A stretch of 64,000 nt of DNA from Candidatus Woesearchaeota archaeon (GCA_018302985.1 JAGVZA010000002.1:32228-96227), one strand, 5' to 3'; positions 4,929 through 58,486 are shown, numbered from the stretch's first letter. Numbers and translations: made by a program. Notes: generated by a model not told the origin, from the sequence alone.

Positions 4929-5650
4929 GGGGAAAAAAAGGATTAGACTACATTGACTGGAGTATTAGTATGGGTATTTTTATTGTAGCTATCACAGCTT
5001 TATTTGTCTTTCTCAAGCCAGGAGCGCGTCCAGAACATAATCAAGATACCTTAATCAATCTTGTAGAGCAACAATTCACTAAAGAAACGCAATGGTTTGT
5101 CCATGAAACTCCCCTCTTTATAGAACATTTTCAAGCACTCTATGGTACAGGCAGTCCAGTGGAAATTAAAATAGAAGCTGATATGATGCGTTTAACCACT
5201 ATCAGACCTCCCCCAAGTAATATTTTTATAGTTTCTCCTCTCCCTGCAACTACTGTAAGATGGAATTGTAATGCAATAAATTGTGATAATACCCAGTTCA
5301 AACTATTCGGAACAACAAACACAGTACAAGAGTCAACTCAAATGGAAATAACTTGCACTCCCTTAAATGATCCTATAGCCTGCGCTGCAGTATTAGGTGC
5401 AACCATCACTCATCAAGGCATGCAGCAAAGTAAAATCACTTTATTAGGTACGCAAGACTATAATGCTATCAAAAGCACCTGGACATATCCTCTCCAAAAA
5501 GAATTTGCAATTTATCAAGATGGTCATAAGATCATCGGTGGCCAAGAGCCAGCGCAACAAGTAGAGGTGTTTGTAAAAGAAGCAAACATGAATCTGGTAG
5601 CAGCAGATGGCACACAAACTACAACAACAATTAATATTCGAGTCTGGTAA
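4925..5650 (+). CDS. pilin-like protein with N-terminal class III (prepilin-type) signal
   Basis: N-terminus MRGKKG|LDYIDWSISMGIFIVAITALFVFL: charged residues, Gly, then a hydrophobic helix. ATGA overlap with the upstream platform gene. Confidence 0.4.
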   Translation: MRGKKGLDYIDWSISMGIFIVAITALFVFLKPGARPEHNQDTLINLVEQQFTKETQWFVHETPLFIEHFQALYGTGSPVEIKIEADMMRLTTIRPPPSNIFIVSPLPATTVRWNCNAINCDNTQFKLFGTTNTVQESTQMEITCTPLNDPIACAAVLGATITHQGMQQSKITLLGTQDYNAIKSTWTYPLQKEFAIYQDGHKIIGGQEPAQQVEVFVKEANMNLVAADGTQTTTTINIRVW

Positions 5651-7748: not shown

Positions 7749-7874
7749 ATCCAGAATAAGACCCAAAACTGGACTATTTAAAGATTATGAGCTTCGAAAG
7801 AAAGTATGAATAAAGCGGAAAAAATGCGGTTTTTTCACCAGAAGAATTATAAATCCTAAAATGTTTGCTAATTT

Positions 7875-8069
7875 ATGGAAACAGTCACTATCCAAAAGAA
7901 AGAATATGAGAAGTTAAAGAGAATGGAATCAGAAGTAAAAAATACTAAGGAACAGCTCCAATCTTGGAAGTCAACAGCAGAAGTTCTACAAGATAAAGAA
8001 ATGATGAAAGACATTAAGGATAGTTTAGAAAATCTCAAGAAAGGAAAAATCTGGAAATCTAAATATTAA
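7875..8069 (+). CDS. hypothetical small Lys/Glu-rich protein (64 aa)
   Basis: ORF only. Convergent with the RelE-like gene, and the 3' ends overlap by 4 nt. Confidence 0.3.
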   Translation: METVTIQKKEYEKLKRMESEVKNTKEQLQSWKSTAEVLQDKEMMKDIKDSLENLKKGKIWKSKY

Positions 8070-8326
8070 TAGACAGCATTATGGGTTCCAATAGTTAAAA
8101 CTAATATTTTCTCCTGCTCATCATCAATGAGATAAACCATTCGAAGATTAGAGCTTAACCAACAACTCCAACTACCTTCTAACTCTCTATCAAGTGGATG
8201 TGCATCTAAAGCTCGTCTTGGATCTGCTTTAAGTCGTTCTAGTTTTGGAAGAATATCTTGTCTTCGAGAGACATAGTTGTAAAATCTCTTTTGTATTTTT
8301 TTCTTAAGAAAGTCAAGAGAATACAT
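8066..8326 (-). CDS. RelE/ParE-family type II toxin
   Basis: MYSLDFLKKKIQKRF...LEGSWSCWLSSNLRMVYLIDDEQEKILVLTIGTHN aligns along its whole length with the RelE/ParE fold (YFLDF..., ...YRLVY.VD...V.I..I.H). The ATG at 8326 overlaps the upstream stop (TGATG). Confidence 0.7.
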   Translation of the reverse strand: MYSLDFLKKKIQKRFYNYVSRRQDILPKLERLKADPRRALDAHPLDRELEGSWSCWLSSNLRMVYLIDDEQEKILVLTIGTHNAVY

Positions 8327-8712
8327 CAGCACCTGACCTTCATCACTGCCAACGTTTCAGGATACTTCTTGATCTTCTCTCCTAGTTGTTCATCAGTCTC
8401 AGAATGTAAAATTTCATACACAACCCCTTCAGTAATATCCAACACATCACATCTGCTTCCATTGAGAAAAATAGCTTCTGTCAGAAAATCATGTCCCATT
8501 TCTCGTAAGGAACAGCAGACCTCAACTTTCTTTGCTATGTGCTGCCAGCTTTCTCCCAGAGAAAAACGAATGCAATTAACATGGCCTCCACACCTGTTGC
8601 TAAATCTAACAAGGTTCAAAGAACTGCGAATATGTTCTCGTTTGTATTTTTGATTGAAATAGGCTCTGCGTTTTGATCGATAATAACTTGCTTTGATTTT
8701 TTCGTAGTCCAT
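8326..8712 (-). CDS. hypothetical Cys/His-rich protein, translationally coupled to the RelE/ParE gene (candidate non-canonical antitoxin)
   Basis: 128 aa with CGGHVNC...CC...C...C. Its stop TGA overlaps the RelE ATG. The start is ~50 nt downstream (on the minus strand) of conserved upstream element A and ~22 nt after a TATA-like box. Confidence 0.45.
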   Translation of the reverse strand: MDYEKIKASYYRSKRRAYFNQKYKREHIRSSLNLVRFSNRCGGHVNCIRFSLGESWQHIAKKVEVCCSLREMGHDFLTEAIFLNGSRCDVLDITEGVVYEILHSETDEQLGEKIKKYPETLAVMKVRC

Positions 8713-8746
8713 GAACTAAGAAGTTGTCTAAGATTAATATGCTTGC

Positions 8747-8792
8747 TGGAGAAAAAACCGGAAAAACAGAGAGTGAAATCGAAAGACTTGCG
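8747..8792 (-). promoter_or_regulatory. conserved upstream element copy A (GGAGAAAAAACCGGAAAAACAGAGAGTGAAATCGAAAGACTTGCGG on plus), ~50 nt upstream of the minus-strand ATG at 8712
   Basis: Near-identical (~35/40 nt) to copy B at 50537..50575. Related copies lie at 18572..18617 and 54339..54420. Confidence 0.5.
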
Positions 8793-8860
8793 GATGGGAT
8801 AGGTGAATTTGCGGAATTTTCTCACAAAGAGTTATTTAGATTCTTTTGACATAGTAGAGA

Positions 8861-9548: not shown

Positions 9549-9890
9549 CTACGAAGATTCGGATAGCAATGTTTCAAGAGCTTTCTGAGGAAAACGGTTT
9601 CGCAAATTTATGGTTTGACAAGCCATTTGATAAGTGGCAATTATAGGGGGTACTCCTAGTTCTTGGGAAATAAAGTAAGTTCCTAGTTGTTTGCCATCGA
9701 ACAAGCCAAAGTAGAGTACAAAAATGGTTTTTGCCTTCTCATCAGGAAGGAAATTCAAAAGAGTGTCTACTACTCTATCGACTGTCTGTGGTGAGAAAGA
9801 GGATGCAGCAACAAGAGGTTTATCATGAATCCATCGTAAAAAAGCAAGCGCCCCTCGCTGAACATATTTGGGGGTGTAGTCATCGGTCAT
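9549..9890 (-). CDS. hypothetical protein
   Basis: 113 aa ORF with no recognisable domain. Confidence 0.4.
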   Translation of the reverse strand: MTDDYTPKYVQRGALAFLRWIHDKPLVAASSFSPQTVDRVVDTLLNFLPDEKAKTIFVLYFGLFDGKQLGTYFISQELGVPPIIATYQMACQTINLRNRFPQKALETLLSESS

Positions 9891-10120
9891 GGTAAGAATT
9901 AATCAAGGTTGTATGATAATTTGTTGTGAAGGAGATACTGTAAATCAATCCTGGAAATGGTTGTGTAAGATTTAAAGTCACAAAACCAATACAAAACGTT
10001 TGTTCATTTTACCCCCGGAAAACAAGAGACTATGAGCTTATAATGATTTTGTCAGAAAAATGTCATTGAGAGAGTGTAAAAAAGCAATAAAAGGTTGATG
10101 TGGAGAATAGTCTGTCGATA

Positions 10121-14139: not shown

Positions 14140-14208
14140 CCGAAAATCTTCCGGAAATGGCTTAAATCTTAACGAAAAGCATATAAAGATGATAGCGTTA
14201 TTATAGGT

Positions 14209-14984: not shown

Positions 14985-15290
14985 TTATTTACAACAACTG
15001 CCTTTCATCTCATTAAAATCACTAAACAACGTGCAAAATGTCTGCAGTCCAGTTTCTAATTCTTGTTTCCCTTTAGAAGTTAAAGAATATGCTTTGTTAG
15101 TATTGACTTTCAATAATCCCTTTTCTACTAAGTCTTTGAGTGCAGGATAAATCGTTCCAGGACTAGGCTTAGTTCCTTTTCTTGCTTCCAATTCAGTAGC
15201 TAGTTGAGCGCCAGTCTTGGCTTCTTTCTTAACCATCCACAAGATCAGTAAAGACAAAAATCCTTTCGTAGAGCATCCAGAGTCTTTCAT
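14985..15290 (-). CDS. PadR-family transcriptional regulator
   Basis: GFLSLLILWMVKKEAKTGAQLATELEARKG...SPGTIYPALKDLVEKGLL is a canonical PadR winged helix. Confidence 0.7.
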   Translation of the reverse strand: MKDSGCSTKGFLSLLILWMVKKEAKTGAQLATELEARKGTKPSPGTIYPALKDLVEKGLLKVNTNKAYSLTSKGKQELETGLQTFCTLFSDFNEMKGSCCK

Positions 15291-15319
15291 ACACTATTGG
15301 ATATCCAACTGCTATATAA

Positions 15320-15883
15320 GTGTTACTTGTCAAGAGCAAAAAAAAAGAAGGTAAAGCTTATAAAATAAAAAGAGAGCACCAAGAGATGGTTAATACAGAA
15401 TATAAACCAAAGAGAAGAGATATCGTTTACCAAATGGCAAAAGATCTTGCGCACCCCATACAAGACTTTGTGGTAAATCCTCTATATAATATGCTAACTC
15501 ATCCCTTTACAAGAAGACTAGGATATCTTGTTCGAGAATGGAATATGCTTCCCCATACTGTTGCAACACTTCTAAGAAGATGTAATGAAGATCCAAGGAG
15601 CGTAAGATTTGCTGATGCAGGAAAGTATAATAATACAGTTGATACTCTTGGTTTTTTTATAGGTGCTACTGGCGTAGTTACACAAATAGGAATTTATTGG
15701 ACAATGCAGGATAACTGTCCAAAAGTCGCAGGAGTTTCTTCTATATGGGCTATACCTCTCCTCACTAATCTGGCTTCAGGATTCTATGAATGGCAGCGTT
15801 CAGCAAGAAACCGTCTAATAAGACATCAACAGCAGTCTTTAGAGCAAACTGTCCAAGCGCCTAATGTTGAAACTCATGCATAA
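15320..15883 (+). CDS. hypothetical protein
   Basis: ORF only; the start is uncertain (alternative start at MVNTEYK). Confidence 0.35.
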   Translation: MLLVKSKKKEGKAYKIKREHQEMVNTEYKPKRRDIVYQMAKDLAHPIQDFVVNPLYNMLTHPFTRRLGYLVREWNMLPHTVATLLRRCNEDPRSVRFADAGKYNNTVDTLGFFIGATGVVTQIGIYWTMQDNCPKVAGVSSIWAIPLLTNLASGFYEWQRSARNRLIRHQQQSLEQTVQAPNVETHA

Positions 15884-18326: not shown

Positions 18327-18548
18327 TTATGAAGAAATAGGGTCAAGATAAGTCTTGATAGCTTCTTTTGTTCTTTCCAAAAGTTGATCTAGAAATTTAG
18401 CTTGCGTATGGCATCCTGGAAGTCCTACAACTTCTGAGATTAACCAGCCATCTTCATCTTTCTCTATGATCACTGTATATTTCTTGGCCATAAAAAGTTC
18501 ATGGGTTGCATTATTTATATAGGTTGTGTTGGTCATGACAATAAGCAA
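18327..18548 (-). CDS. HicB-family antitoxin-like protein (UPF0150)
   Basis: MAKKYTVIIEKDEDGWLISEVVGLPGCHTQAKFLDQLLERTKEAIKTYLD is a classic HicB/UPF0150 fold. An alternative start lies at 18491. No HicA partner is visible. Confidence 0.6.
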   Translation of the reverse strand: MLIVMTNTTYINNATHELFMAKKYTVIIEKDEDGWLISEVVGLPGCHTQAKFLDQLLERTKEAIKTYLDPISS

Positions 18549-18571
18549 GTAGAAGTGGTTAAAGAATCTTT

Positions 18572-18617
18572 CTCAGAAAAAACCGAAAAAATGAAGCATA
18601 AAATCGAAAACTTTACG
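18572..18617 (-). promoter_or_regulatory. conserved upstream element copy C (CTCAGAAAAAACCGAAAAAATGAAGCATAAAATCGAAAACTTTACG), upstream of the HicB-like gene
   Basis: Aligns with copy A across both half-elements. ~50 nt from the minus-strand ATG at 18548. Confidence 0.45.
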
Positions 18618-18700
18618 ATATAGATAGAAGTATTTTCGGAAAAATCACCGCAACTGCTATTAAAAGAAAATACTTTCTTCCTCATCGGAGGTGAAATTCC

Positions 18701-18829
18701 ATGAAACAATTGTACTGTATTGAATGCAATCGTCCCATTAAGCAGCGTGGTCGTTGTCTAGCTTGCAACACACAAGCAAAGAAACGTCGTGCAGCGCAGG
18801 ACCGTGTTGTAGAAGAAATAAGTATATAA
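18701..18829 (+). CDS. small C4 zinc-ribbon protein (42 aa), possibly ribosomal protein L40e-like
   Basis: Not in the ORF track (<60 aa). A strong Shine-Dalgarno GGAGGTGA lies 7 nt upstream of the ATG. Sequence is MKQLYCIECNRPIKQRGRCLACNTQAKKRRAAQDRVVEEISI, with a CxxC...CxxC ribbon and a basic tail. Confidence 0.45.
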   Translation: MKQLYCIECNRPIKQRGRCLACNTQAKKRRAAQDRVVEEISI

Positions 18830-18875: not shown

Positions 18876-19379
18876 ATGAGACGTTTATTTCTTCTTTTTG
18901 GCCTGAGTATGATCTTAGTGCTAAGCGGATGTGTACAAATTAATGAACCTGTCTACTGTACAGCAGATGCTAAAGCATGTCCTGATGGAACCTATGTAGG
19001 TCGAGATGCTAACAATAATTGTCAATTTTATTCCTGTTCTCAACCAAGACAGTGTACTGAAGAGGTAAAAAATTGTCCAGGTGCATCAGCAGTTGGTCGT
19101 GACCCTTACAATAATTGTGAATTCTATCCTTGCCCAACAATGCAAGCATGCACAAAAGAGTTAAAATCTTGCCCCGGTAATACTATGGTAAGTCGTAATC
19201 CTTCTAATAATTGTGAATTCTATGATTGTCCACCAACAACAAAAATAACTAAAATAAAATGTGAAAGCCAGAACGGTATAGTTGTTCTAAATCCTGGTGC
19301 TGGTGTTATGTGTCCACAAGGAAAAGTAATGATAGGTACAGTTACTATGGGCATTGAAAGCGGCATTTGTTGCAGATAA
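18876..19379 (+). CDS. secreted Cys-rich tandem-repeat lipoprotein
   Basis: Signal peptide plus lipobox MRRLFLLFGLSMILVLSGC. Three ~35-aa repeats of the form C..E.K.CPG...VgRdpnNNCeFY.CP. Confidence 0.55.
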   Translation: MRRLFLLFGLSMILVLSGCVQINEPVYCTADAKACPDGTYVGRDANNNCQFYSCSQPRQCTEEVKNCPGASAVGRDPYNNCEFYPCPTMQACTKELKSCPGNTMVSRNPSNNCEFYDCPPTTKITKIKCESQNGIVVLNPGAGVMCPQGKVMIGTVTMGIESGICCR

Positions 19380-35490: not shown

Positions 35491-36042
35491 CTAAGGATGA
35501 AAATGAGTTCCAAAGTGTTCTCGTAAAAAAGCTCGTGCTCTATGCAATCTTGTAGATGTTGTCTTTAGATTTACTCCCTGTTGCTGAGCAATAGCGACAT
35601 AGCTTAGGTTTTCAAATGCATAAAGTCTAAAAACACTCCTGAATTTTTCAGGTAGCAAAGCAACAGCTCGTTGAATTTTTGCCACGGTTTCTTCTGTAGC
35701 TAATTCAGTAAGAGGAGTTGCCTTGGCAGGACAATCTTGTTGTTCATCTAAAGGAAATGCTCTTTGAGCTCGACGTTGTGAACTCAAATAATCTCTACAA
35801 ACATTAGGAAAAGAAGCCCATATGTATCCTGGTAAGTTTTCAAAAATCTTTGGTCCATCATCGCTTGCAATTCTATGAAGCACTCTAAGATAAGTTTCTT
35901 GTGCACAATCTTCAGCAGCATCTCGTGAAAGTGAAAATTGTTTATATCCTCGTCTAAGTAATGCAGGTCGTAATCTTTCTACTGTTGTGGTCAATTGATC
36001 TAAACAGTCTTGTGTAAGTGTATCGAGAGTCGTCGTCACCAC
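35491..36042 (-). CDS. ECF-type RNA polymerase sigma-70 factor
   Basis: Region 2 QETYLRVLHRIAS...YIWASFPNVCRDYLSSQRRAQ. Region 4 ALLPEKFRSVFRLYAFENLSYVAIAQQQGVNLKTTSTRLHRARAFLRE. GTG start. Confidence 0.7.
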   Translation of the reverse strand: MVTTTLDTLTQDCLDQLTTTVERLRPALLRRGYKQFSLSRDAAEDCAQETYLRVLHRIASDDGPKIFENLPGYIWASFPNVCRDYLSSQRRAQRAFPLDEQQDCPAKATPLTELATEETVAKIQRAVALLPEKFRSVFRLYAFENLSYVAIAQQQGVNLKTTSTRLHRARAFLREHFGTHFHP

Positions 36043-50501: not shown

Positions 50502-50536
50502 AGATAAGAATAAAACTTCACTCTTTAAAACAGTTG

Positions 50537-50575
50537 CTGAGAAAAATCCGGAAAAACAGAGAGAAAATCCGAAAG
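50537..50575 (-). promoter_or_regulatory. conserved upstream element copy B (CTGAGAAAAATCCGGAAAAACAGAGAGAAAATCCGAAAG), between tRNA-Val and the nuclease gene
   Basis: Near-identical to copy A. ~48 nt upstream of the minus-strand ATG at 50501; immediately 3' of tRNA-Val. Confidence 0.5.
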
Positions 50576-50584
50576 AAAAGAAAA

Positions 50585-50657
50585 TGAGCCGGGAAGGATT
50601 TGAACCTTCGACCCCGTCCTTGTAAGGGACGCATCATAACCGCTAGACCACCGGCTC
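50585..50657 (-). tRNA. tRNA-Val (anticodon TAC)
   Basis: The reverse complement is GAGCCGGTGGTCTAGCGGTTATGATGCGTCCCTTACAAGGACGGGGTCGAAGGTTCAAATCCTTCCCGGCTCA. It has an archaeal/eukaryote-type D-loop (GGTCTAGCGGTTATGA) and no encoded CCA. Confidence 0.8.
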
Positions 50658-50697
50658 ACAACAGAAATGTCCCAAATATGCTATTTAAAGATTGTGC

Positions 50698-53857: not shown

Positions 53858-54294
53858 TTCTTTATTCCTCCAATTTTTTCTCTCAGATAGTCTTTAGCTT
53901 CTCTATAAGTGTAAACAACTTCATTGCGAACACGTACAGCAGTTTGACAGGCATATGCGTCAAGTTTCTCCAAAAGATTGTCGCCAGCATCTGCTGTATT
54001 TTTTGGTCGCTTGAAAGGAACAGGAGAAGGTAAAGGATCAGCACCTGTTCGAGAAGGATTTTTCAAATATAGTAAAAAACGTTGCTCCATCGTTAGAGGT
54101 TGTGCAATGGGTTGTTGAGGTTCAGGAACTTGTTGTGATATCTGCACAGGTACAGCAACAGTTTTTTCTAAGGAAGATATAGGGGTAGAAGCTGGAGAAG
54201 TAACTGGAGTTTCAGCACGTCCACAATGACCTGTGCAATAACCAAGCGTGAACACGCCCACCCCTGCAAGTACATATCCTTTAATCGAAGTCAT
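53854..54294 (-). CDS. hypothetical lipoprotein-like secreted protein
   Basis: Signal peptide plus a lipobox-like sequence (VFTLGYC). Pro/Gln-rich linker. Preceded on the minus strand by upstream element D. Confidence 0.4.
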   Translation of the reverse strand: MTSIKGYVLAGVGVFTLGYCTGHCGRAETPVTSPASTPISSLEKTVAVPVQISQQVPEPQQPIAQPLTMEQRFLLYLKNPSRTGADPLPSPVPFKRPKNTADAGDNLLEKLDAYACQTAVRVRNEVVYTYREAKDYLREKIGGIKK

Positions 54295-54338
54295 AGAACT
54301 AGGAAGATTTTAGTTTAAAAGAAACTTGCTACGAAAAT

Positions 54339-54420
54339 GTCGAAAACTTTGCGAAAAAGTTGAAAATAAAACAACCTACGCCGAAAACTTTGCGAAAAGA
54401 AAGCATTTTTCCGGAAATAC
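54339..54420 (-). promoter_or_regulatory. conserved upstream element copy D: tandem CGAAAACTTTGCGAAAA half-sites plus TTCCGGAAA
   Basis: GTCGAAAACTTTGCGAAAAAG and GCCGAAAACTTTGCGAAAAG lie 41 nt apart, followed by TTTTCCGGAAATACC. Upstream of the minus-strand gene starting at 54294, and also ~55 nt upstream of the plus-strand cca gene. Confidence 0.4.
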
Positions 54421-54473
54421 CACGCTGGATTCGCAACAGAAAGTTTATATGATTGAGAAAAAAGAGATTTTTC

Positions 54474-55679
54474 ATGGATTTCAAAAAAATATTAGCAACT
54501 TGTAAACCTTCGCCAGAAGAGGAACTGCATTTGCAAAAACTAGTGAAGGAAATACTTAGTAAAATCAAGATTCCCGGTGCAAAACCCATATTAGGTGGTT
54601 CAGGTGCCAAGAATACCTGGCTAAGGGGAACGCATGATATCGATATTTATGTAAAATTTAATGTAAAACAATATAGTCGCAAAACAGATCAACTAGCAGA
54701 TATTTTAGAAAAAGCACTAAAAAAACATTTCAAGCTAGATCGTTTGCATGGCTCTCGAGATTATTATCAAGTATACAAAGCCCCATATACAGTAGAAATA
54801 GTCCCTATTTTAGATATCAAAAAAGCTGCAGAAGCAAAAAATATCACAGACTTTTCACATTTACACGTTGCCTACGTGCAAAAATACAAAAAAGCAGCAG
54901 ATGAAATTCGTTTAGCAAAATTATTTGCAAAAGCCCAAGGCATCTATGGTGCAGAAAGTTATATGCAGGGATTTTCTGGGTATGTTATGGAGTTGTTAGT
55001 TATTCACTATGGTTCATTCATGAAGATGATGCGTGCAGTTGCAAAATGGAAAGAAACAACCATCATCGGCGATAAAAAAGAAGCGCTCAGTCTTAATCCA
55101 GCAAAAAAAGTATCTCCTTTAATTTTGGTAGATCCTGTCCAGCCAGAAAGAAATGCAGCCGCTGCTCTATCAGAAGAAAAATATCAGCAATGTATCAAAG
55201 CTTGTCAAAAATTCCTAAAGCATCCCTCAGAAAATTTATTCGAAGAAGAAGAGATCAACTGGGAAAAAATCAAAAAGAAAGGAACTGTATGGTATTGCGC
55301 AGTAACTCCTTTGCCAGAGAAAAAAGATGTTGCTGGAGCTAAAATGTTAAAAGCATTTGATTTCACTAAACAAACCTTAGAACGTGCAGAATTTAAACTC
55401 TATAAATCTGGTTGGCAATATGCTGCTCCGTCTTTTTTCTATTTTGTAGTAGATAAAAAACCCCTATCACCAACACTACTGAGACAAGGTCCTCCTTTAA
55501 CACATCCAGAAGGAGTCCTACATTTCAAAAAACAACACAAGAAAATACTCACGAAAAAAGGTCGTTTATATGCAGAAGTCCCTCGAGAATTTACACATGC
55601 ACAAGACTGTCTTAAGAGTGTTCTAGCCTCAGAAAACGTTGTAAATAGGGTCAAAAACGTCTCCGTAAGCATTCTGTAA
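54474..55679 (+). CDS. cca: class I (archaeal-type) tRNA CCA-adding nucleotidyltransferase
   Basis: ILGGSGAKNTWLRGTHDIDIYVKF matches the class I CCA-enzyme catalytic motif (GS.ARGT.L.G.SDIDIF). Protein length ~400 aa. ATG at 54474. Confidence 0.7.
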   Translation: MDFKKILATCKPSPEEELHLQKLVKEILSKIKIPGAKPILGGSGAKNTWLRGTHDIDIYVKFNVKQYSRKTDQLADILEKALKKHFKLDRLHGSRDYYQVYKAPYTVEIVPILDIKKAAEAKNITDFSHLHVAYVQKYKKAADEIRLAKLFAKAQGIYGAESYMQGFSGYVMELLVIHYGSFMKMMRAVAKWKETTIIGDKKEALSLNPAKKVSPLILVDPVQPERNAAAALSEEKYQQCIKACQKFLKHPSENLFEEEEINWEKIKKKGTVWYCAVTPLPEKKDVAGAKMLKAFDFTKQTLERAEFKLYKSGWQYAAPSFFYFVVDKKPLSPTLLRQGPPLTHPEGVLHFKKQHKKILTKKGRLYAEVPREFTHAQDCLKSVLASENVVNRVKNVSVSIL

Positions 55680-58042: not shown

Positions 58043-58426
58043 TTAAGAAACTATCAATTTGACAAAATCAATTTTTTTGCTTGTTTGCAGTTTCTGAAGA
58101 AGTTTTTTGATAAGAGTAGCATCTCCTTGTACCATAAAAGTTTCAAGACAGTGTTCATTTGCTAAATGGGTATGAAAATGCGTTTTAATTAGATCACGAT
58201 ACTCATGACGAAGAGCTGAAACTTCCTTGGAATGTTGATCTTTATGAGTAACTAATAATACTCCCTCAACTTTTCCCTTAAGATGTGCTTGTGTTTTATG
58301 TTCTGTCAGCAAGCTGCGTAAACCTGCCCGAATAATCTCACTGCGTCCAGTGAACCCTAGTGCAGTCTGTAGCTGATCAATCTCTTGTAAAAGGTCATCT
58401 GGTAAGGACATGCTGATGATAGTCAT
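58043..58426 (-). CDS. nikR: nickel-responsive regulator NikR-like (RHH plus ACT-like metal-binding domain)
   Basis: N-terminal RHH IISMSLPDDLLQEIDQLQTALGFTGRSEIIRAGLR. C-terminal His/Cys cluster HFHTHL...HC. Confidence 0.65.
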   Translation of the reverse strand: MTIISMSLPDDLLQEIDQLQTALGFTGRSEIIRAGLRSLLTEHKTQAHLKGKVEGVLLVTHKDQHSKEVSALRHEYRDLIKTHFHTHLANEHCLETFMVQGDATLIKKLLQKLQTSKKIDFVKLIVS

Positions 58427-58486
58427 AGAAGAAATGAGCAGTCTTAGTTTATAAGGTTTATTAAGAAAAAGCGTGAAACTTAGTAA

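Follow-up and report, generated by a model that had tools for sequence, protein, structure and literature searches.

What is the role of a short element that recurs in the intergenic DNA of an archaeon, close upstream of the start codons of quite different genes? The question is raised by a 64,000-nt stretch (hereafter the window; GCA_018302985.1, JAGVZA010000002.1:32228-96227) from a Rifle groundwater Candidatus Woesearchaeota, an uncultured archaeon of the DPANN group, whose members are almost entirely uncultured. The window corresponds to positions 65964-129963 of scaffold_16 (325,631 bp; ENA ERZ28563625). A first, sequence-only reading noticed the element at 8747-8792 and took it for either a transcription-factor site or a promoter-associated RNA element. 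Here we describe it as a phased array of CG-centred boxes in front of the core promoters of accessory genes, and we consider it probable that an oligomeric transcription factor uses the array as its operator or upstream activating site. The setting is typically archaeal: the window is AT-rich (35-40% G+C in 2-kb windows), carries a class-I CCA-adding enzyme and two tRNAs without encoded CCA, and has strong TATA boxes before most of its transcription units.

Three copies of the element, at regions A, C and B, form one family. A repeat search joined 8750-8816 (A) to 18575-18641 (C, 70% identity) and 50540-50606 (B, 61%); the principal copies of the sequence-only reading are real and lie where it had put them. 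The stretch shared by A and C is 67 nt long, and about 42 of 48 nt are identical between A and B, including the spacer CTCTCTG. The 16-mer CCGGAAAAACAGAGAG occurs in exact copies at 8758 and 50548; with up to three mismatches allowed it has 4 matches against 0.62 expected, a count that none of 100 shuffled sequences reached. The repeat search also ties C to region D through TCGAAAACTTTGCGA. Region D had been named as a fourth copy; the same boxes are present there, but in a different arrangement, and the 45-nt unit itself is not repeated. Of the weaker echoes that had been noted, those at 14141-14190 (region E) and 7795-7840 (region G) hold up, with CG spacings of 11-21 and 21-11 nt, whereas that at 10014-10030 is a single half-site to which no promoter geometry could be tied. 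Below, a plus or minus sign after the letter gives the strand of the gene served.

The best-conserved part of the element is a non-palindromic, T-rich box adjacent to the transcription factor B (TFB) recognition element (BRE), CCGGWTTTTTCTC. Read toward the gene, this proximal box is 13 nt long with the consensus cCGG-tTTTTT-CTC; the regular expression BCGGWWTTTTCWS has 5 matches in the window against 0.06 expected, a number found in 0 of 200 shuffles. After the box come 8 A-rich nt that resemble a BRE (AGCAAG or AGAAAG in many cases), a TATA octamer, about 20 nt and the ATG, and the T-rich strand of the box is the coding strand of the served gene in 14 of 14 aligned instances. At five window promoters (A-, A+, B-, C- and G+) the box ends 36-37 nt before the ATG, and the TATA octamer, with the A-rich octamer ahead of it, ends about 20-21 nt before the ATG, which is the sequence layout of an archaeal BRE/TATA core promoter of the leaderless type. 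The sixth window promoter, C+, keeps the order of box, 8 nt and TATA but has a leader and a ribosome-binding site. These TATA assignments and transcription starts are sequence-based, the starts being inferred only from the TATA-to-ATG distance. In line with the sequence-only reading, the element of A, B, C and D lies about 47-50 nt ahead of a minus-strand ATG and is separated from it by a TATA-like box. The features of the six regions are given below, one per line; E-values are from an nhmmer search with a proximal-promoter profile that was built from the 14 instances and run over about 170 kb of DNA of the lineage.

7790..7838, plus: G boxes, with CG at 7795, 7816 and 7827, between tRNA-Gly (minus) and a 64-residue open reading frame (ORF) at 7875-8069 (plus)
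7826-7838, plus: G+ proximal box GCGGTTTTTTCAC (E = 1.7e-5)
7846-7855, plus: G+ TATA box ATTATAAATC, preceded by CAGAAGA; ATG at 7875, of the 64-residue ORF beside tRNA-Gly
8712..8066, minus: A- operon, 128-residue gene and RelE-like gene
8733-8740, minus: A- TATA box ATATTAAT; ATG at 8710-8712
8741-8748, minus: A- BRE-like octamer CAGCAAGC
8749-8761, minus: A- proximal box CCGGTTTTTTCTC, ending 36 nt before the ATG (E = 2.3e-6)
8780-8792: A central palindrome CGAAAGACTTGCG, made up of inner boxes 2 and 3; a distance of 21 nt separates its CG cores from the CG of either proximal box
8811-8823, plus: A+ proximal box GCGGAATTTTCTC (E = 1.1e-5)
8832-8839, plus: A+ TATA box TTATTTAG, with BRE-like octamer ACAAAGAG
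8861, plus: ATG of the A+ 109-residue gene, which is followed by a DUF2283 gene
14141-14153, plus: E palindrome CGAAAATCTTCCG, overlapping TTCCGGAA at 14149-14156
14173-14179 and 14180-14188, plus: E core, 21 nt on, with BRE CGAAAAG and TATA box CATATAAAG
14209, plus: ATG of the E DUF5678 gene, which is followed by a retropepsin-like gene
18558-18565, minus: C- TATA box TCTTTAAC, with BRE-like octamer AGAAAGAT; ATG at 18536, of a HicB-like antitoxin gene
18574-18586, minus: C- proximal box TCGGTTTTTTCTG (E = 1.2e-4)
18605-18617: C central palindrome CGAAAACTTTACG
18636-18648, plus: C+ proximal box TCGGAAAAATCAC (E = 4.1e-4)
18657-18666, plus: C+ TATA box CTATTAAAAG, with BRE-like octamer CGCAACTG
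18701-18829, plus: C+ 42-residue zinc-ribbon ORF, its predicted transcript with a leader and the ribosome-binding site GGAGGTGA
50501, minus: ATG of the B- gene, for a membrane-anchored or secreted nuclease of the endonuclease/exonuclease/phosphatase (EEP) family
50523-50530, minus: B- TATA box TTTTAAAG, with BRE-like octamer AGCAACTG
50539-50551, minus: B- proximal box CCGGATTTTTCTC (E = 3.2e-7)
50561-50573, minus: B second direct box TTCGGATTTTCTC, 21-22 nt upstream of the proximal box
54313-54321, minus: D- TATA box CTTTTAAAC; operon ATG at 54294
54331-54343, minus: D- degenerate proximal box TCGACATTTTCGT
54341-54353 and 54382-54394: two identical D palindromes CGAAAACTTTGCG, 41 nt apart
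54409-54416: TTCCGGAA in D
54444-54451, plus: D+ TATA box TTTATATG; ATG at 54474, of the CCA-adding enzyme gene

A second motif is the 13-nt palindrome CGNAA-N3-TTNCG, with sites at 8780, 14141, 18605, 54341 and 54382 where about 0.2 were expected (0 of 200 shuffles). Palindromic cores had been proposed before; the one represented by TTCCGGAA is a palindrome at two sites only (14149 and 54409), and the recurrent dyad is the 13-nt motif instead. All ten hits, five for each of the two motifs, are intergenic, although intergenic DNA makes up 7.2% of the window (P = 1.9e-6 for each motif). The half-site CGRAAA is likewise concentrated there, with 19 of its 45 occurrences (P = 7e-11); CG dinucleotides overall show no intergenic enrichment in the window.

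The boxes are spaced as regularly as they are placed. Successive CG cores lie 21-11-21 nt apart in A and in C, 21-11 nt in G, 11-21 nt in E and 21 nt in B, while D has mostly steps of 9-11 and 19 nt, and the pairwise distances between CGs have a period peak at 10.5 nt (P about 0.0005, corrected for the choice of period). With a spacing of 21-11-21 nt, the CG cores therefore face the same side of the helix. In A and C four half-sites oriented -> -> <- <- span 53 bp, the inner pair forming the palindrome and each outer box abutting the BRE of one of two divergent promoters. Each of these two regions is thus a dyad-symmetric control region common to two divergent genes. The element is therefore not specific to the minus strand, before whose start codons each copy had been placed, since an inverted box also serves the plus-strand genes (8811-8823 and 18636-18648).

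How selective is this arrangement? The profile search returned exactly the six window promoters and their orthologues at E <= 4e-3, and everything else at E >= 0.68. It gave no match in a more distant relative (L169, 20.8 kb), and no further copy lies in the 9.7 kb that adjoin the window on its right; the genome sample comprised about 74 kb of the source genome and a few short related contigs. The same 21-nt TATA-to-ATG class is found at about a dozen further window promoters. At 33 other TATA promoters of the window there is only diffuse T-richness upstream of the BRE, and a TTTC ending 9-13 nt before the TATA box occurs in 4 of the 33 as against 7 of 10 promoters with the element. Because the others show only this diffuse T-richness, the box is a feature of a subset of promoters, neither of all promoters nor of all leaderless ones. 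That the promoters with the element have weaker TATA boxes than the others was not clearly supported.

The boxes have been kept in relatives while the DNA between them has changed, at protein identities of 58-80%. Orthologues of region A in a Woesearchaeota genome (L001) and in contigs L159 (80% protein identity) and L161 (69%) have retained all the CG boxes, at the same spacing, along with the proximal box and the TATA box, while their spacers have diverged; the A- proximal box is invariant in L001 and L159 and nearly so in L161, whereas the spacer CTCTCTG is not conserved in the L159 orthologue. An orthologous G site lies at 4111-4081 of L159. The C cassette recurs in L168 (GCA_964390715.1) before HicB/HicA (4672) and the same 42-residue ORF (4622, minus strand), its proximal CGs 53 bp apart as in the window. 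The layout of box, BRE, TATA and ATG also stands before unrelated genes in groundwater DPANN contigs, namely RadC (L123 and L130) and unannotated genes (L049 and L002, the latter labelled Nanoarchaeota), with a distance from box to ATG of 36-38 nt in L049, L123 and L130 (two copies) and 37 nt in L002 and L168. Among at least 119 metagenome loci listed as matches to the motif, L049, L123 and L130 have the full promoter layout and a few are doubtful (L041, L063 and L081); the remaining listed loci are bacterial coding or chance matches. In the scan of the genome collection, 2 of 12 matches were relevant.

The element thus has the marks by which an operator is recognised: a motif over-represented at a constant distance from the core promoter, dyads and phased repeats, and boxes that are kept where the spacers are not. 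Of the readings offered earlier, that of a dimeric transcription-factor site belonging to a regulon fits best, given the fixed geometry, the dyad symmetry, the helical phasing and the conserved orthologous promoters with their diverged spacers. We favour an oligomeric factor because the palindrome is of dimer size, further half-sites lie on the same face two turns away, one box would contact the BRE, and the boxes are conserved over the spacers.

Our model for such a factor is as follows. The array consists of DNA boxes immediately upstream of the BRE/TATA core in a subset of promoters, most of them leaderless in appearance, and its building block is the CG-centred half-site CGRAAA, read TTTYCG toward the gene and used in two forms. 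One is the proximal box CCGG-WW-TTTT-CTC abutting the BRE, which, were transcription to start at the ATG or close to it, would occupy about -50 to -38; the other is the 13-bp palindrome CGNAA-N3-TTNCG, sized for a dimer. One dimeric or tetrameric factor would bind the palindrome and spread or bridge to the flanking boxes, and the bound factor would control recruitment of TFB and the TATA-binding protein (TBP) at one or both promoters. In this way the array would co-regulate accessory genes, among them toxin-antitoxin-like pairs, DNase-I-like nucleases and small proteins, with RadC in relatives. TrmBL1 is an activator where it binds upstream of BRE/TATA and a repressor where it binds downstream (PMC4706686). 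By this positional rule, and because the sites lie upstream of BRE/TATA without overlapping the TATA box or the start, activation is more likely here than repression of the occlusion type. A looping repressor of both divergent promoters is a conceivable alternative.

Several observations weigh against such a factor. The layout of the boxes varies by region, and in D and E the palindrome lies 20-28 bp from the TATA box, not about 38 bp. The L167 orthologue of B has lost the proximal CGG (CTGA) and retains the T runs, which agrees equally well with a decaying site and with T tracts that act structurally or through a basal factor. The sequence T5-CCGG-T6 amounts to two in-phase A-tracts 10 nt apart, and in-phase A-tracts are a classic bent-DNA signal. 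Finally, the identity between A and B extends to the spacer and so exceeds what a binding site needs, which suggests recent copying besides constraint. The T runs of L167 and the phased A-tracts would also suit an extension of the core promoter, in which the T-rich box is read by a paralogue of a basal factor or acts by A-tract bending as an UP-type element does; other window promoters are mildly T-rich in the same zone, and the proximal box has its TTTTC at about -45 to -40, the place of a motif that is essential in Sulfolobus (PMC5817253). Nevertheless, the CG cores are the best-conserved positions across the diverged orthologues and bending alone needs none of them, and neither the palindrome, which lies another 21 bp upstream, nor the dyad array of four boxes would be explained; we regard this alternative as unlikely. 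The copying between A and B could instead be taken as the whole story, with a promoter cassette duplicated, or moving by recombination with accessory cassettes (toxin-antitoxin pairs and nucleases), and no common regulator. The shared spacer that L159 lacks and the 67-nt likeness of A and C would then be explained by descent, and it is in keeping with this that the served genes are accessory and vary between relatives, that homologues of the 128-residue gene occur in phage-like and defence contexts, and that copies adjoin tRNA genes (B, G and L159:5018). Descent alone predicts uniform decay, yet the spacers have diverged around boxes that keep their sequence and spacing, and the palindromes and conserved CG cores are left unexplained; apart from the functional boxes, neither target-site duplications nor terminal repeats are present, and orthologous positions are stable across relatives. 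As a sole explanation we find it rather improbable, and copying and constraint are compatible, not mutually exclusive. A miniature inverted-repeat transposable element or other small mobile element was rejected: the inverted repeats are only the functional proximal boxes, flanking duplications are absent, the copies are 60-70% alike except for A and B, and the orthologous loci, in the few genomes available, all carry the element. A viral origin was set aside as well, since scans of viral contigs with TTTTTCCGGWTTTTTCTC and CGAAAACTTTGCGAAAA gave chance or coding matches only.

Two further explanations concern transcripts. Oligo-T is an archaeal termination signal, and the T runs might be terminators, or insulators against read-through into the downstream gene. 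Region B lends itself to this view, as its whole T-rich stretch, with several T4-T5 runs, starts directly after the 3' end of the same-strand tRNA-Val (50584-50658, minus strand), and the T runs of B may also terminate the tRNA-Val transcript. A, C and G, on the other hand, lie between divergent genes and therefore have no upstream same-strand transcript to terminate, and the CG cores, the palindrome and the fixed 8-nt distance to the TATA box are left unexplained, so that termination is a very unlikely function of the element as a whole. Still less probable, to the point that we give it hardly any credence, is a structured or promoter-associated RNA, the other suggestion of the sequence-only reading, or a recombination site of the integron attC type, acting as single-stranded DNA. 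Pairing is indeed possible between the inverted proximal boxes of A, and the neighbourhood is rich in toxin-antitoxin-like cassettes, but the element lies upstream of both flanking TATA boxes; folding z-scores for both strands of A, B, C and D ranged from -1.9 to +0.9 and were not significant, and an Rfam search of the window found two tRNAs only. Integron attC sites in particular were dismissed because there are no GTTRRRY/RYYYAAC cores and no significant hairpin, and because the genes have TATA promoters of their own, stand on both strands and are interspersed with housekeeping genes.

If an oligomeric factor binds the array, which protein might it be? The window encodes several DNA-binding proteins (PadR, HxlR, NikR, a sigma-like protein of the extracytoplasmic function (ECF) type and the 42-residue zinc-ribbon protein), none of which could be linked to the motif. 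PadR is an unlikely candidate, as its own divergent promoter has a different perfect palindrome, TTGGATATCCAA. This palindrome lies at 15297-15308, between the PadR gene (14985-15290, minus strand) and a divergent gene at 15320, and probably serves as the operator of PadR itself, with no relation to the CG boxes. A 113-residue ORF at 9549-9890 (minus strand) was considered as a helix-turn-helix regulator and dropped for want of any family or structure match; among 5.8 billion proteins it had no homologue besides itself.

The ECF sigma-70-like protein deserves separate mention. It is a full-length protein of 183 residues (35491-36042, minus strand) with Pfam matches to Sigma70_r4_2 (44.7 bits) and r2 (22.3 bits); its best solved relative is SigE (E = 2.5e-11, residues 27-179), and the G+C content of its gene is that of its neighbours. 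ECF sigma promoters have the consensus GGAAC at -35, N16-17 and CGT at -10. A literal promoter of this type was rejected, as AAC and CGA are 12 nt apart in A, not 16-17, and the box pair of B points away from the nuclease gene, into tRNA-Val antisense. It is a long shot, though a conceivable one, that the array is the target of a sigma-70/ECF-like protein re-used as an archaeal transcription factor. The helix-turn-helix of its region 4 would then recognise a GGAAA-like half-site, and the protein would activate toxin-antitoxin, nuclease and RadC cassettes of horizontal origin, which would move together with a bidirectional promoter module of their own. Genes for sigma-70/ECF-like proteins are reported to be prevalent in Woesearchaeota, with no known mechanism or role (Castelle et al., 2021; PMC8204110).

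The genes served are heterogeneous, as had been claimed. They may form a stress, defence or DNA-scavenging regulon. A second EEP nuclease is encoded in the D operon, in addition to that of B. The partner of the 128-residue gene varies, being RelE-like in the window, an unannotated protein of 104 residues in L159 and DUF2283 in L161. The 128-residue Cys-rich protein itself (8326-8712, minus strand) belongs to a small family (also in L162-L165) that is found in phage-like contigs, next to YopX and among many small same-strand ORFs, and that elsewhere adjoins RadC, a DNA methylase and a Schlafen-like helicase. Its AlphaFold model (mean predicted local distance difference test score 81) had only weak, non-significant resemblances to PD-(D/E)XK nucleases.

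Some observations made along the way concern the surroundings of the array. At about 18 window promoters (for example 6938-, 7616-, 20104-, 58426-, 61914+ and 62788+) the distance from the end of the TATA octamer to the ATG is exactly 21 nt, a pattern which suggests that leaderless transcription is widespread in the genome. Within 58427-58470, ahead of the NikR-like gene (58043-58426, minus strand), CACGCTTTTTCTT is found 8 nt in front of the TATA box CTTATAAA and has the look of a degenerate proximal box; the site was below threshold in the profile search. In L159 an ideal palindrome, CGGAAAGTTTCCG, stands at 5018-5030, directly after the 3' end of tRNA-Gly and before two unannotated genes; these genes are absent at the syntenic place of the window, and the comparison suggests gene turnover beside tRNA-Gly. 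Near region C, 18876-19379 (plus strand) encodes a secreted Cys-rich protein with no Pfam match, which contains three 96-nt tandem-like repeats that each code for an NNC-x-FY-x-C module. Beyond the right end of the window, at a distance of about 3-8 kb (L166 14144-19189), lies an SMC-family gene of 1681 residues that is interrupted by an intein (Intein_splicing and LAGLIDADG_3).

An operator of fixed geometry across groundwater Woesearchaeota would allow regulons to be predicted from sequence alone, and a 66-bp DNA bait carrying it could be used to fish for the regulator. It would also provide a handle on how these symbionts control their toxin-antitoxin modules and DNA-degrading enzymes. Should the regulator prove to be sigma-like, the finding would be considerably more important; as it stands, it is solid but of an ordinary type.

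The array resembles several known systems in part. The site of TrmBL1/Tgr and SurR-like operators are likewise short palindromic motifs that recur in the promoters of a regulon, and here too a 13-bp dyad lies upstream of the BRE. The TrmBL1 site, the Thermococcales glycolytic motif (TGM), is TATCAC-N5-GTGATA. In contrast to it, the element described here has another sequence, a 21-11-21 multi-box array and an additional non-palindromic T-rich box abutting the BRE, and it occurs in a DPANN lineage before accessory genes, whereas the targets of TGM lie in sugar metabolism. Phased A-tract bent DNA and UP-type elements similarly place helix-phased A/T tracts upstream of a core promoter; however, the conserved CG cores and dyad symmetry of the present array indicate base-specific recognition and not shape alone.

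Closer to the proximal box are the ultraviolet-inducible promoters of Sulfolobus acidocaldarius (ups operon and tfb3), in which A(N)TTTC at -44 to -39 is essential for activity (PMC5817253). That motif is also non-palindromic, T-rich and directly upstream of the BRE, and the AATTTTC of the A+ box fits it. It is 6 nt long, whereas the box described here comprises 13 nt, among which CGG is invariant, comes together with CG boxes and a palindrome further upstream, and belongs to another phylum. The array as a whole also recalls the MsvR boxes, TTCGN7-9CGAA, several of which lie in divergent promoters of methanogens as sites of a dimeric archaeal regulator (PMC3729527). Both have CG-containing half-sites, inverted and direct, with several boxes in one divergent intergenic region; the half-sites face the opposite way, however, CGAAA-N3-TTTCG here as against TTCG...CGAA, and MsvR has been described as unique to methanogens (PMC3729527); no MsvR homologue was seen here, where no search was aimed at one. 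For promoter or operator motifs of DPANN archaea or Woesearchaeota, full-text searches of the literature gave no description. What is new is the motif, together with its four-box geometry and its lineage; the kind of element, a regulon operator upstream of an archaeal core promoter, is well known.

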